A stretch of DNA of 58,498 bases from sequence record MW584206.1, one strand, 5' to 3'. Of this stretch, positions 1-9,000 are shown piece by piece. How positions within the stretch are numbered: the first letter of the stretch is position 1; every line of letters begins with the position of its first letter. This stretch comes from Mycobacterium phage prophi91-4. The position numbers are program-made.

Positions 1-3000
1 CCCAGAGGTCGCAGGTTCAAATCCTGTCCCCGCTACTAGGTCCCCAGGCCAGAGGATTAATTTCCTCTGGCCTGGGGTTTTTTTCTTGCCCTGTATCACC
101 CCAAGTCTCCATAAAGTCTCCATTAATTCGCAGGCTGTTCCAGCATGCGATCCAGCACGGCCGCCGCCTCGGGGTGTGCCTTGCCGCGAGCCAGATAGTG
201 CCGCTGTGTGGTGAGGATGTCGGCCTGACCAAGCGAGTCGGCGATGACGCGCATGGGAAGCCCCGCATCGTCCTTGAAGGTCGCGCCGGCCTTGCGGAAG
301 CTGTGCGCGGTGATGTCTTCGGCGATGCCCAGGGCAGCGCGGATCCGGCGCCATTGTGTCGCGACGTTGGTGGGGTCTCGCGGGGTCCACTCGTCGGACG
401 GAAACACGAGGTCTGCGAACTCGTCGGCGATCGGCGCCCCGAATGCGAGCTTGCGCTTGGCCAGTGCGTGCTTGCGGGCCTCCAGGGTCTTGATGGCGAA
501 CTCCGGCACCGAGATTGGCTGGAAGCGGTTCTTCGGGTCGTCGTCTTTGGTGACGCGCACTAGGCCCTTGCCCTTGACGCGGGTGATCTTGCCTGAAGGC
601 ACGAACACACGGTTGACCAAATCGAAGTCTGGCCACACCACGCCGAGCACCTGGCTGGTGCGCAGGTTCAGCCCATACAGCAGATCCACGTAGTCGGCCA
701 TGTCTGCACTCTCGCAGTACTCGGCGACCGTGGGCGGCGTGTAGCTCCTGGGCGGTTTCTGGCGCTCGGCGGCCGACAGGATCCGCGGGCACGGCGCCGC
801 AGACCTTCGTACGGCCTCGAGGATGAACCGAACGTCCTCGGCGCCAATATGGGCCGCGCCACCGGTGCGGCCCTTAGGTTCGACATCCTTGTCGAGCTCC
901 ACCTCGCGCAGGGGATTCACTGAGACCGCGCCGCTGCTGATCCGAATCGCGTAGCGGAACATGCCAGAGAGTGCCGAACGGCACGCTTTGGCGGACCCGG
1001 GACCGTGGTGCTCTGCCAGATCCGAGAGGTAGGACTCCAGGAACGTGGTGGGAACCTCGGAAAGTCGACGCGAACCGAAGCGCTTGATGAACCGCTCGGC
1101 CTCGCGGTCGTAGGAGTCCAAGGTGCGCTGTGCGCGGCCCTTCTTGAGTAGATAGGGGCGGTAGTGCGTGGTCCAGAGCGTGGCGACGGTGGTGCTCAAG
1201 GTGATCGTGTTGTCCATCGGTGAGCTGGCCAGATCGCGGGCCGCCACCTGGACAGCTTCGGCCGCACGATTGCCTCCAGCGTCCGGAATCGCGCGTCCGC
1301 GAGTGTCGAACTTGGGAGGGCTGATGCGCTGTAGCTTGCGGGGCCTGCCGCTCGCGTCGCGCACTGAGACGATGGCCTCCCAGACGCCGGGGGCGATCTC
1401 CTTGCGGTGCACCCTGCCGGGAACCCCTATGGGTCGCTGCGGCCTACCGCGTGACACCGCGCGCCCCCGGAGTGAGCGTCAACCCTGGCTTCATGGGCAG
1501 TCATTCTAGTCCGTTCTGCGACAACAGATCTGGCGATCGCGTACACCAATTGACTGTCCAAAACTGTCTAACGTGGTCGGTTACTGTCCGATGGGTGCGG
1601 AGCTCGTTCTGGCGCAAAGCGGGTTGCTAGAACGGAGTAACGGCTTCCACGCTCACCGTCATTCCGTGAGCAGTTGCATCATTGATGAACTTCGTGCCCT
1701 CGGTGGTTGGGGTGATAGTCCAGCCAAGGGTGCGATAAACCGTCCCGTAGCTCAAGGTCTTGTATTGCACCTGTCCGCGATCACCGATCATCCAGTTGAA
1801 GTCGCCCCCGGCCGTGATCTCCACGCCGTTGGCAGGCATCCCATACATGATCGGTGTGCTGATGCTGAACCGCACCAAACATCCGACCCTGCCAGGGGTG
1901 ACTTGGCAAGAAGTCTTTCCAGATTTGGTGCCGACAAAAACACTTCCATCCGGAGCAGGCAGAGCGATCGGTGCGGGGCTCACGGTCGTTACGGGCGGAG
2001 TAGGAGGTGCTGGAGGTGGAGCGGTGACCTTTGGCGCAATCACCGAGGATGGGGGTATGGGTGATCCGATGGCTGGTGTCTCATGGGGGCCTTCGCGGAG
2101 GAAGACGTATGCGCCACCGGCAGCGAGGCACGCGACCGCAGCTGTAGCCCCGAACACGATGCCACTGATCAACCAGTTGCGCCGCCCGAAATCGTCGTAG
2201 GGCTCTAGCTCGTCAATGTCATCAGAATCGGACCACGCCGCCGGGACCGCGCCAGCCATACCGGTGTCCGCCAGGGCGGCGCTCGAAGCCATAGTTGGCT
2301 CCTGGCCGAGGTCGTCGTCGCGAGTATCCACAGAATGTCGACCCTCCCGATATCCGCGGTGCCAGCGCAATCTACACCGAGCCAAGATCAGTCACGGGCT
2401 TTTGACAGTCCGAATGCCGACTTCTCGCCCGCTGCTGATTTTCTTGAAAATTGTTGGAACCGAATTGGCCCTAGTGTCGTCGTATCTAGATGAATGCCAG
2501 TTGTTACGACAGAACGCGAGGTGGGCAGTGGGCGAGTACAAGTTCGACATCAATGGGATGTCCCAGGATGCTCGGCAGGACGCCGCAGAGGCTGCTCGCA
2601 CCACACTAAAGTTCAAGGACGGCTACGGCATGGAGCTCGCCGGGGACATGCTGCGGGCTCGTGACATGGTCGAGACACAGATTTCAGCCGTGAGCCTTGA
2701 TCAAGATCTTGCGTTGGGGGATCTGCCTTCCGGGAAGGCTGCGGCTAAGCACTATGCCACCCAGCGTGCAGCTGCCGTCGATGCCCTCAAGAAGATCTCG
2801 GCGCATTACAAAAGTCACGCCGACCACTTCATCGCCACCGAGATGTTGTACCGCAACACTGAGGAGCGCAACGCCGGCCGGATCAACCCGTACAAGGATG
2901 GAACGGCCACGGTGAAGTACTGATGATGCGATTAGTTCTGACGATGGCGGCCGTGGCCTTCGCGATTGTGGGCTGCGGCCCGTCGACCGGCATCACCAAG

Positions 3001-6000: not shown

Positions 6001-9000
6001 CTGGCTGGCGATCCTCCTGATGGTGGCGCACATCAGTATCACGACGACCAGCGCGTTGGGTTCGACTGCGGCGGACTCGTGCGCTACTCGACTAAGCAGG
6101 GCGCCGGATACGACGTGTTCCAACGAGCCGACGGCCTGGACTCCGGTGCAGGTACCGACCGAATCGACAAGAGTCAGCACCTAGCGCCTATTGACGGAGG
6201 CGCACGTATCCCATCCGCGCAGATTTCGAGTATCGCCCGGCCGGGCGACATCCTGGTCTTCGAGATCCCCGGTAGCGGACATGAGGCATTCAGTGGCCAG
6301 AACACCCAACACACCGGTATCTATGTTGGGAATGGGTTCATGATTAACGCACCAGAATCCGGAGTGCCGGTCCGATTAGACAACGCGGACCGTGATGGAA
6401 GACGAACCGACGTTTTGAGGCTGAAATGACGCTGCTGCACGTGTGCTCGCTCCTGCTGGCTGTGGGTCTCTCCGCCGGGTGCGGCCCGGCAACGTCAACC
6501 CAATCCACCGTCAGCGCATCGCCGATCGCAAGTACATCGGCAGCGGTACCGGACAACGACGGTGTGATGGCTCGTTTCACTAATGACATCTGGCCGGCTG
6601 TCGAGGGTTACAGGTGGCCAGGGCAAGGAAGCCCGGCATACAAACGATTCGTGTCAATCGTCGCCCCCGATCGGTTCAGCGCAGCACACGATGCGGCGGT
6701 CCGGCTCGGCAAGGTGTACAACAGCGACGGCTACCCGGTCAGTGGGCCCGACGCGGAGCATGGACTGAAACTCGTTGACACCGCGCTTACCTCTCTTGAG
6801 TCATCGATAGCGGTAATCAGCACTTGCTATACCTACCCGTCATTCAAAAGCGGCGACACCACGGGGACTCCATCCGCGTCCGAGGCGACCTTTGAGTTAC
6901 GGAAGACCGATAATTGGTATCTCTGGGACATCACCAATGACCATGTCGTATCGGGATGTTCGGCATCGGATCATGCATGATCGGTTGGCGAAGCCATCGC
7001 ACACAAGCATTGGTCTCAGCTACCGCTCTGATCATCGCGGCGTGCTCGGATGCCTCCGATACAACGAGTTCGACGCCCTCGCGGCCGCCGGCGGTATGTG
7101 AATCCAACTTCACGCGGGACCAATTCGCCGGTAGCTGGGACGAGGATAGCTCCCCGGGTATGTACACCCTGAACACGGATGGCACCTTGGTCAACGGTGT
7201 GTTGGACGAGAAGCTCACTGGTACATGGGACTTCACAAAGTGGAGTCAAACACCAGGGAAGCCAACGCCCGGTGAGGAAAACGCTTGCGTTCTATGGCTC
7301 AAAATTAACTTCCGCAGCGGTCCCATGAATCTTCTCTACGCCCCGCTCAGCGTCAGCGATTCGACCTTGAAAATCAGCTACATCGGGCGTGGTAACACCA
7401 TCGTATGGAACCGTGCAAACAAGGCGTGAGTGCTGGTGACAGATTGTGAGTAAGCCACAACCCCAACTCGATCCAGCGCGGCTAGAGCTGGCCGCTGGTT
7501 TGTACGATATGGCGGCCTGGCAGCTCGACGCTTTCCTCGATGACGCTGCGGGCTACGGGATTTCGTCACCGGACGCTGCGAGCCTTCAGGCGCTCGCGGA
7601 TCTGATGCGGTGGCAGGCCGACGCGTATCGACGCTATGCGGTGAAGATGCGCGCCGATGACGAGATGGTCGATGCGTACTTCGCGGGTCGTGTGGTGGCG
7701 CCGAACACGGCAGCAGCCTTCGAAGCGTCGATAACCCGCGACGAACATCCACCGTTACCGAAACGGTCCAACGGCATCGACTACCAGCTGCTGAGGCCCG
7801 TGCGGGATCTACTCGAAGAGGCGCACGCAGTTCTTTCTCGCGGCTCGAGGCCGGCGATGGCGTACGCGGCCAAACAGGCTGCGGCGCTTTATTCCTGGTG
7901 CCATCCGCCACTGTCGGTGTGACGATCGGAAACTCTCCAGATAGTTGAAATTCGTTGGAACCGAATCGGTCTCACGCGACGTCGTACTAGATGTCAGCCG
8001 AACCCCGATTGCAGGAGCGTTCAACGATGAGCGAGACAAGCAAAAGGCTCCATGCGCGCGACCCGAGATGTTGCCACGGTGGCCGGGTGTGTGGCCTGCC
8101 GCCAGATACGTGACGTCACGCACCGCCAGCTGCGCCGTGCGACGTGGGGTGTTGGGCCTCAAGGTTGTACAGAATCCGCATGTTTGCCCTGGCGGAGTGT
8201 CGCCGACTCCGTGCGGTTGTCAGCACTGCCTACACGGCATTCACCGCAGGCATTGTCAGCCCTACTGTGTCTGTAGGCCCTATCTAGATTGCTTTGCTGG
8301 CATACGCATGATTTTTATATAATGCCTGCTAGTTGCATATAGGACTTAGGGATTTGACATTAGCGAAATGGAGGTATTGGGGGTATCTTTCAGCCCATGG
8401 CTATCGATAGTTACAAGGGACTGGAGGCCCGACGATTTTGGGGTGTGAGGGGGGTGCAGAGGTGGGGATAGCGTCGAGATATGCAGATGAGCGAGTCGGA
8501 TAGCCGCTGGCCTTGCCGTCCACCGGCAGTTTTGGCTGTCCACGAATGTCCGGTAGGTGAGGGGAGACTACTTCCATGACAACGAAATCAGTGGATGTGA
8601 TGGGCACGGAGTACCGGAACCTGGTCTCCGCCGGCTCGCCATGCCAAGGATTCTCGACGCCCAGCAGTGGTGGTTTCAATCGCCGCCCGGGCAGTGTTTG
8701 GCGCATCGGTTCGGGTTGGCAATGAAGAAAGTGGTCGTTAGTGGTGGGCATCCGTCGGCTCGGCTGCTTAAGGTCGGATCTATGCCGGAAATTGAGGTGA
8801 GAGGACAGGTCACGGTGGCTATACGGTCAGAAGATGCAGAACGTATGTGTTGGGCGCGAGCCCGAAACGGTTCCCAACGTGGCCATCCACGGCCATCGAG
8901 CACTCCACAGATGCTCCGGAGCGCCGGGTGGAAGTTGGGGCATGTAGAAGATCGCCAAGGTGTGCCCCATGCTGGTGAATGTGAGATCTGGCGGGCGAGA

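Follow-up and report, generated by a model that had tools for sequence, protein, structure and literature searches.

Most prophages of Mycobacteroides abscessus carry polymorphic toxin-immunity (PT-Imm) cassettes with WXG100 partners at their attachment (att) sites, and in some of these the immunity protein is a lipoprotein (Dedrick et al. 2021, PMC8092301). The term PEST (phage-encoded ESX-secreted toxin) was coined by Amarh et al. (2023, PMC10654092), who counted 1,063 unique prophages that carry such cassettes, distinguished PEST1-3 by carrier domain and found that two PEST toxins block transformation unless the immunity gene is present. In M. abscessus subsp. massiliense the arabinanase EatA (GH183) is responsible for an ESX-4-dependent antagonism between mycobacteria and has a lipoprotein inhibitor, EatI; across 946 M. 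abscessus genomes, NlpC/P60 ranks with the most frequent families of type VII payloads, and lipoprotein immunity is typical for envelope-targeting payloads (Benedict et al. 2026, PMC13444075). Here we describe a locus that resembles these systems in the Mycobacterium phage prophi91-4 (sequence record MW584206.1), whose 58,498 nucleotides were analysed as a whole and are called the window below. The locus is an island of eight + strand genes (2528-7922) between the integrase gene and the repressor region. With a probability of roughly three in four, we consider it a PEST2-type toxin-immunity cassette that sits in the eight-gene MabE-type frame of a prophage from the Mycobacteroides chelonae/abscessus group and acts by the mechanism proposed below.

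The genes of the island overlap at 2923, 5128, 6426-6429 and 6977-6980 and the other gaps are tight, so that they make up a single operon. A first-pass annotation of this DNA had listed eight genes, three W-x-G motifs, the NlpC/P60 motifs and three lipoboxes, all of which are present where it placed them. It had also recognised the layout of a polymorphic toxin exported by a type VII secretion system (T7SS), i.e. carrier, NlpC/P60 payload, Esx-like helper and lipoprotein immunity, and this is supported by module swapping, by the predicted fold and by annotated homologs. Its view that such a module is unusual for a phage has to be given up, since PT-Imm/PEST cassettes at att sites are the norm in prophages of the M. 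abscessus-chelonae group (PMC8092301, PMC10654092).

The toxin PT433 (433 residues; 5128-6429, +) is composed of a carrier domain (5128-5594) and a payload (5595-6429, residues ~156-433). The payload comprises a structured Pro-rich segment and a RipA-like NlpC/P60 domain that matches NLPC_P60 (PF00877) over residues 273-415 (E 2.4e-10, 40.8 bits, gathering threshold 23). Matches to the RipA, RipB and DIP1281 models of NCBIfam are domain-level only and lie far under the equivalog cut-offs. The catalytic residues are Cys314, His395 and Asn407; the first two are invariant in 89/89 NlpC/P60-bearing homologs, and position 407, which aligns with E444 of RipA, is always polar (N 73, D 7, Q 6, E 4, H 2). 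The AlphaFold2 (AF2) model of the toxin has a mean predicted local distance difference test (pLDDT) score of 82.7, and the score is above 90 from residue ~180 onward, the Pro-rich segment included. Because of this high confidence the Pro-rich stretch, earlier taken for a linker, would belong to the structured payload module. A Foldseek search with the payload returned RipA, RipB, MAP1204 and RipD with a probability of 1.00, E-values down to 6e-7 and ~173 aligned columns. The payload is predicted to be a catalytically intact RipA-like fold of the papain-like alpha+beta type and, by analogy, most likely cleaves the bond between D-isoglutamate and meso-diaminopimelate (D-iGlu-mDAP) in stem peptides. 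No signal peptide, Sec or Tat, can be read from the toxin sequence, and a peptidoglycan enzyme that lacks one needs another export route.

The carrier (residues 1-~155; 5128-5594, +) is helical, contains W46-G-G48 and is 77% identical to the N-termini of the GH19 toxins described below. W46 is found in 82 and G48 in 86 of the 88 aligned homologs, and in the AF2 model helices 73-102 and 121-156 have pLDDT values of 82-91. The gene of the WXG100/ESAT-6-like helper, g100 (100 residues; 4826-5128, +), directly precedes the toxin gene, whose start at 5128 is overlapped by the g100 stop codon. g100 has the motif W42IG and matches PF06013 (E 1e-6, 29.3 bits, gathering threshold 27.3) and TIGR03930 (E 2e-7). 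Its identity is 90% in siblings with the same carrier and only 24% in siblings with a different core. The earlier expectation of WXG100 and NlpC/P60 domains thus holds for g100 (PF06013) and for PT433 (PF00877) but not for the toxin N-terminus or for the frame protein g409, neither of which is recognised as a WXG100 protein by Pfam or by profile comparisons. In other words, g100 is the only PF06013 member, and the neighbourhood of the W-x-G is the sole part of the toxin N-terminus and of g409 that aligns with WXG100.

Homologs of the toxin in annotated phages were sought by tblastn. The toxin is 53% identical over its full length to prophiGD05-2 gp63, annotated as 'polymorphic toxin, with RipA-like peptidase domain and WXG motif', and 60% identical to phiGD21-1 gp34, annotated as 'peptidoglycan endopeptidase RipA and WXG100 family domain fusion protein'; a third annotated match, prophi91-3 gp69/68, also comes with an immunity protein. 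These GenBank annotations of RipA-like toxins date from 2021, and prophiGD05-2 is the PEST2 representative (PMC10654092).

The survey of related cassettes covers about 20 loci, gathered by several routes; a scan of species-representative genomes with the carrier alignment contributed one locus, and when viral contigs were scanned with single proteins, g184 yielded 1 locus and g150 yielded 0. In the siblings L008/L009, L016 and L017 the helper (90%) and the carrier (77%) are retained, and the payload is a GH19 domain (PF00182, E 3.8e-12). Here a single lipoprotein of 133-141 residues, a homolog of g150, stands before g158, and g184 is missing. DNA similarity to the GH19 siblings L008 and L017 stops at nucleotide 5594 (residue ~155), where the last carrier helix ends, and is found again from ~7454 onward. 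The exchange of C-terminal domains among siblings, which had been anticipated from the layout, is therefore real: the payload and the downstream gene(s) are exchanged right after the carrier. A wider exchange is seen in the MabE1 prophages and in four IMG/VR contigs, where g131, g203, g409 and g158 are retained at 58-94% identity. In these MabE1-type siblings the helper, toxin and immunity genes are replaced by an Abhydrolase_8 toxin and an LppA-like lipoprotein, with breaks at 4776 and 7443. One frame thus carries three payload types, NlpC/P60, GH19 and alpha/beta-hydrolase, and exchange takes place at two nested levels, which is the hallmark of polymorphic toxins. A fused GH19 and NlpC/P60 protein (P0087) was considered in connection with the idea of one immunity gene per payload domain; it has no bearing on it, because its context is an unrelated chromosomal locus without the W-x-G frame.

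Lipoboxes were tested with a PROSITE PS51257-style pattern, with g131 and g158 as negative controls. The pattern matches g203 (Cys18), g184 (Cys19), g150 (Cys23) and all their homologs and neither of the controls, which confirms the three lipoproteins of the first-pass annotation. Not all of them can be retained as immunity candidates for the NlpC/P60 toxin: only g184 co-varies with this payload and is a homolog of annotated immunity proteins, whereas g203 is a frame gene and g150 tracks the GH19 payload. g184 (6426-6980, +), the candidate for the cognate immunity protein, has a predicted NTF2-like fold and two invariant cysteines, C134 and C178, which fits an extracytoplasmic binder. It is 41-46% identical (E 1e-36 to 1e-42) to proteins of 189-190 residues annotated as 'polymorphic toxin immunity protein', all of which have a lipobox and overlap the toxin stop codon. 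Every NlpC/P60 toxin examined has a lipoprotein of the g184 family behind it, a pairing seen in at least eight independent contexts and also in small integrative or satellite elements; cassettes with other payloads lack this family.

The second lipoprotein, g150 (6977-7429, +), is 42% identical to the 133-residue lipoprotein of L008/L017 and related to the 141-residue one of L016. In those siblings a member of its family stands alone between the GH19 toxin and g158; the family is missing from the alpha/beta-hydrolase cassettes and is small, with 31 representatives in 1.84 billion proteins. g150 may be an orphan or second immunity gene that tracks the GH19 payload and is extra in the window. 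The third, g203 (2923-3534, +), belongs to DUF3558 (Pfam, 3.2e-18). It accompanies all three payload types, unchanged whatever the toxin, and by this distribution appears as a conserved frame gene and not as an immunity gene for the NlpC/P60 toxin.

Three further observations concern the immunity side of related loci. The M. abscessus 424-residue NlpC/P60 toxin of L006 is followed by a 147-residue gene (9275-9877) that has no lipobox as called and whose start is seemingly truncated; its frame extends upstream through a lipobox-like AAVVAAC, and its C-terminus has CY(S/T)YP and a terminal Cys, as in the g184 family. The 19.7-kb viral contig IMGVR_UViG_2799113230_000001 (L018/L024) contains an alpha/beta-hydrolase cassette of the MabE type, preceded by the conserved promoter, and a separate gene of the g184 family (44%), which suggests that one element holds two toxin-immunity cassettes. 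In the alpha/beta-hydrolase cassettes L021/L024 as compared with L001, the toxins are 92% identical to those of prophi68-1 and the LppA-like lipoproteins only 50%; the immunity-side gene has thus diversified within this payload type.

The regulation of the island can be compared with that of SigM operon 8 of M. abscessus ATCC 19977 (Mab_1828-1834), which encodes PE, DUF3558, PPE, WXG100, NlpC/P60, 'PknH-like' and 'Dps-like' proteins (PMC13491425). SigM induces this operon (log2 2.8-5.5), which was detected in 39/96 isolates; directly upstream of it is a SigM site with a -35 element GGAACCG after an A-rich stretch; DUF3558 is enriched in the M. abscessus SigM regulon (PMC13491425). SigM-type promoter candidate 1 of the window (2434-2490, +) lies ~65 bp upstream of g131 and consists of the A/T-rich GAAAATTGTT, the -35 element GGAACCG at 2456-2462, a spacer and CGTCGTA. 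Its -35 element is an exact match to the published M. abscessus SigM -35 with A-rich upstream (PMC13491425). The element is near-invariant in 5 cassettes with unrelated upstream flanks and is kept in all siblings. Candidate 2 (7935-7995, +; GAAATTCGTTGGAACCG ... CGTCGTA) lies directly after the island, again at the same relative position in all siblings. Behind it is a short open reading frame (ORF) of 28 residues (8027-8113, +), with GGAG before the ATG at 8027; promoter 2, the ribosome-binding site and the first ~4 codons are kept in all siblings, and the remainder of the ORF diverges completely. In both copies CGTC(GTA) stands 17-18 nt past GGAAC, with CGTCGTA at 2478-2484 and 7981-7987. 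GGAACCG alone is not rare (19 observed vs 11.6 expected per window), so the evidence consists in position and conservation. A scan of 2300-8300 for sigma-70-like promoters found none. The conserved SigM-type promoter likely ties the island to the ESX-4 regulon.

By its sequence features the island qualifies as a PEST cassette: a prophage att location, an adjacent WXG100 gene, a carrier with a variable payload, co-varying immunity and affiliation with the PEST2 superfamily. We propose that a lysogen transcribes the operon from the SigM-type promoter, an induction that was shown for Mab_1828-1834 only, and that with such a promoter the operon would be co-induced with ESX-4 substrates. The carrier (1-~155) would pair with the 100-residue WXG100 helper, and the resulting bundle would be recognised by a type VII system, most likely ESX-4. 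Published evidence, namely the SigM regulon and the EatA precedent, points by analogy to ESX-4 and not to ESX-3. The payload (Cys314-His395-Asn407) would cut stem peptides in the envelope of a neighbouring mycobacterium or of the producer, while g184, on the outer face of the membrane, would bind and block it, so that the lysogen and its kin are protected. g150 would probably confer immunity to the GH19 payload of sibling prophages.

Several points weigh against this proposal. As regards the carrier, the AF2 monomer of the toxin is poorly confident over residues 24-71, and the toxin N-terminus has no Pfam match (none at E <=0.1), so that WXG100 membership is not detectable. The carrier profile aligns in register with EsxA/EsxB/ESAT-6 entries of the PDB at E 0.17-0.8 only, which is not significant. 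Alignments of the carrier, g409 and g131 to the WXG100 helper family with hhalign were all negative (probabilities <1% for the carrier and g409, with 0.4% for the carrier), and a motif inventory found no canonical YxxxD/E in the helper g100 or in the carrier. As regards the promoter, the match to the published SigM site covers the -35 and the A-rich part only. The three-gene NlpC/P60 cassettes are without the two-part SigM-like motif, which means that the SigM wiring is not general. The role of g150 is based on co-occurrence in only three or four loci. An exported peptidase must moreover pass the mycomembrane of the target cell, a difficulty acknowledged in the literature (PMC13444075), and for the NlpC/P60 toxin we infer secretion, ESX dependence, toxicity, substrate and neutralisation alike.

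The explanation that competes best with an antagonistic toxin, and one that we regard as unlikely, is that the exported NlpC/P60 protein opens the producer's own peptidoglycan for an ESX-4-linked process (the secretion machine, cell-cell contact or conjugal DNA uptake), in which case g184 would be a regulator or anchor that limits the activity. It is in keeping with this that only wall-active payloads (NlpC/P60, GH19, alpha/beta-hydrolase) are fused or swapped in the frame. However, the payload and the lipoprotein behind it change together, and the breakpoint just past the carrier is sharp; such a signature points to toxin-immunity diversification rather than to a housekeeping helper. The SigM study does propose envelope remodelling as a possible role of operons 8 and 12 (PMC13491425), conjugation in Mycobacterium smegmatis provides a precedent, and the dedicated wall hydrolase EssH assists T7SSb secretion in Staphylococcus aureus. 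On the other hand, the cassette is accessory and borne by prophages or satellites, homologs of the downstream gene carry an immunity annotation, and toxins of other PEST cassettes kill when their immunity gene is lacking.

Considerably less probable is a virulence factor directed at amoebae or macrophages, comparable to CpnT/TNT or to the NlpC/P60 proteins of 'invasion and intracellular persistence', to which the lipoproteins would be unrelated. PT-Imm cassettes have been proposed to act in in vivo growth (PMC8092301, PMC10654092), and a passage in PMC8092301 cites a need for ESX-4 in the intracellular growth of M. abscessus. The structures closest to the payload are peptidoglycan endopeptidases, however, whose substrate is absent from eukaryotic cells, and the tight co-variation of payload and lipoprotein argues for a bacterial envelope target that makes self-protection necessary. 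One source names a toxin homolog IipA, yet this name is transferred from RipA-like similarity only.

That the protein is a phage lysin, i.e. an additional endolysin or a virion-associated peptidoglycan hydrolase active at infection or lysis, is hardly tenable: its NlpC/P60 region does match tail-lysin PHROGs (phrog_329, E 6e-8) and minor tail proteins of Gordonia phages (31-32% over the domain), but these matches are confined to the catalytic domain, which in the toxin is joined to a W-x-G carrier that has a WXG100 helper; int and the repressor region flank the gene, and the genes for structure and lysis are opposite to it; small integrative elements that are not phages contain close homologs; related cassettes are expressed in lysogens (PMC8092301); and a complete LysA/holin/LysB cassette is present elsewhere.

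This lysis cassette (54310-57193) is 48 kb away from the toxin and consists of LysA (54310-55776, E 1e-120), a gene in the holin position and LysB (56225-57193, E 2e-83), and the earlier distinction between the toxin and the endolysin is upheld by it. The window is a complete prophage, since the attL core (1-41) is a 40-bp sequence identical to the attR copy at 58459-58498. This core corresponds to the 3' terminus of a tRNA-Met gene, which is intact in the integrated sibling L003 and occupies 1975-2049 there; homology to the window begins at 2014. The tyrosine integrase (444 residues; 123-1457, -) matches Pfam Phage_integrase (1.3e-10) and phrog_1 (2e-32). The structural genes of the window are 89% identical to those of the M. 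abscessus MabE1 prophages prophiGD04-1, prophi68-1, prophi102-2 and prophiGD54-1, which represent configuration 'i' of Dedrick et al. (2021, PMC8092301). The conserved part of the island extends over 2437-8038, ~1 kb from int/attL and clear of the structural and lysis genes.

The interval from int to the island contains a 252-residue ORF (1627-2385, -) with a membrane segment and a Pro-rich stretch; its match is phrog_30065 (unknown function, E 1e-52). The ORF lies outside the conserved island, and siblings have other genes at this place (toxin-antitoxin, PIN, Excalibur). On the other side, 7923-9490 is a region of ~1.5 kb without a convincing ORF and with a lowered G+C content (~58.5%), before a helix-turn-helix gene of 279 residues (9491-10330, -). 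The region is 95% identical in L008, and more distant siblings share only ~100 bp of it (7936-8038). An Rfam search of 7800-9600 gave no match.

The four genes that are kept with all payloads, g131, g203, g409 and g158, presumably form a payload-independent export or accessory frame. g131 (2528-2923, +) encodes a small helical protein without W-x-G whose homologs are annotated as 'WXG motif protein', and it is 78% identical to prophi68-1 gp5 and prophi102-2 gp6. The YxxxE motif described for it exists (YRNTE at 108), but it is not conserved, as the Y is F in the closest siblings. g131 has no Pfam match, and searches of the PDB sequences with g131, g158 and g203 were empty. g158 (7446-7922, +) is a conserved cytoplasmic-type protein that is 72-88% identical across all cassette types and has no lipobox, Pfam match or PDB match.

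The 'PPE-like' protein g409 (3547-4776, +) has a helical N-terminus with W61SG, a long Gly-rich linker and a conserved C-terminal tail of 55 residues. Its 176 homologs are all from Mycobacteroides/Mycobacterium, and some of their UniRef names are those of the PPE family; W61 and G63 are invariant in 114/114 homologs. g409 has no Pfam match, and neither Pfam nor NCBIfam detects PE/PPE domains (PF00934/PF00823) in g131 or g409. The PPE/PE labels stem from the UniRef names of homologs and from the structure-based annotation of Mab_1828 and Mab_1830. The best PDB match of the N-terminal profile is CFP-10/EsxB (E 0.06-0.08, in register, not significant), and full-length g409 gave only Gly-linker artefacts among the PDB sequences, e.g. 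linkers of single-chain variable fragments (scFv). The tail (residues ~356-409; 4612-4776) reads ILINxDNxxEFxGDxPxASPxVIGDWSEQEKAEK...RRYKxLGWDVKFE and is conserved far better than the helical N-terminal part, so to judge from this the C-terminal 55 residues look like a functional tail; a YxxxD within it is not conserved.

A near-identical cassette (toxin 98% identity) occurs in a Mycobacteroides chelonae genome. In the comparison of the window (2528-3534) with M. chelonae L003 (5406-6403), g131 is only 79% and g203 only 56% identical, whereas g409, the toxin and g184 are at 94-98% identity, which indicates that frame genes recombine too.

We note that a module of this kind is already described: the RipA-like/NlpC-P60 payload is annotated in GenBank and listed as a common payload (PMC13444075). 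What was recognised in the window is a known system, and the value of the analysis is thus mostly confirmatory. The new points are modest: the nested three-payload architecture, an immunity gene that is likely an orphan, an NTF2-like fold on the immunity side and a pair of SigM-type promoters. We put forward only tentatively that the twin promoters wire MabE-type islands to the contact-responsive SigM/ESX-4 regulon, that g150 is an orphan immunity gene against GH19 and that operon 8 is a prophage gene set. In that case lysogens of related prophages would fight via the cell wall on contact, each of them protected beyond its own weapon. One promoter and one export frame with three interchangeable envelope-degrading payloads, each with its own lipoprotein, would be a clean natural experiment, and with three payloads in one frame it can be tested directly in M. 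abscessus/chelonae how specific the immunity to peptidoglycan-targeting type VII toxins is and whether these toxins depend on ESX-4; to date, the only toxin characterised there is an arabinanase. If confirmed, the link between prophage and SigM would tell when lysogens deploy their toxins, and it bears on strain competition in the cystic fibrosis lung and on the choice of strains for phage therapy.

It remains to place the island among the known systems. RipA and RipB (Rv1477/Rv1478), the D,L-endopeptidases of Mycobacterium tuberculosis, are the best structural and sequence matches of the payload and have the same Cys-His-polar triad. They are, however, housekeeping division enzymes that are exported by a signal peptide and have Glu as the third residue, whereas the toxin has a T7-type carrier instead of a signal peptide, Asn as the third residue and stays well under the NCBIfam cut-offs set for RipA, RipB, RipC and RipD. 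Effector-immunity pairs of type VI secretion system amidases, e.g. Tae3-Tai3 (PDB 4hz9), are also among the closest known systems. The Eat locus, set beside the island by description and not by sequence, shares with it a helical carrier at the N-terminus, one or more small helical helpers, a payload that degrades the envelope and a lipoprotein inhibitor encoded downstream. It differs in having two Tap proteins (TapA1/TapA2) and an arabinanase where the window has one WXG100 helper and a peptidoglycan peptidase, i.e. the two toxins would target different layers.

Mab_1828-1834 shows the same order of annotated families as the island, with g131 corresponding to the PE-like and g158 to the 'Dps-like' protein and with a small secreted protein in sixth place. 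There are seven genes there and eight here, g150 being the extra one; this equivalence is based on gene order, annotations and the shared -35 element, with no alignment behind it. The published range of the ATCC 19977 prophage is MAB_1723-1833, so Mab_1828-1834 lies at its end with Mab_1834 just outside, and the SigM study makes no mention of operon 8 being prophage-borne (PMC13491425). Two loci considered as the ATCC 19977 cassette (P0017, P0033) both turned out to be other, three-gene cassettes. The PEST2 cassettes prophiGD05-2 gp64-62 and phiGD21-1 gp35-33 have, like the island, a WXG100 helper, a toxin with a W-x-G carrier and a RipA-like domain, an overlapping lipoprotein immunity gene and an att junction nearby; their immunity proteins are 44-46% identical to g184. 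Unlike in these, in prophi91-4 the three-gene core is set inside an eight-gene MabE1-type frame, the additional g150 is present and transcription runs rightward next to attL. The published MabE1-type frames, in turn, carry an alpha/beta-hydrolase payload and an LppA lipoprotein, whereas the frame in the window carries NlpC/P60.

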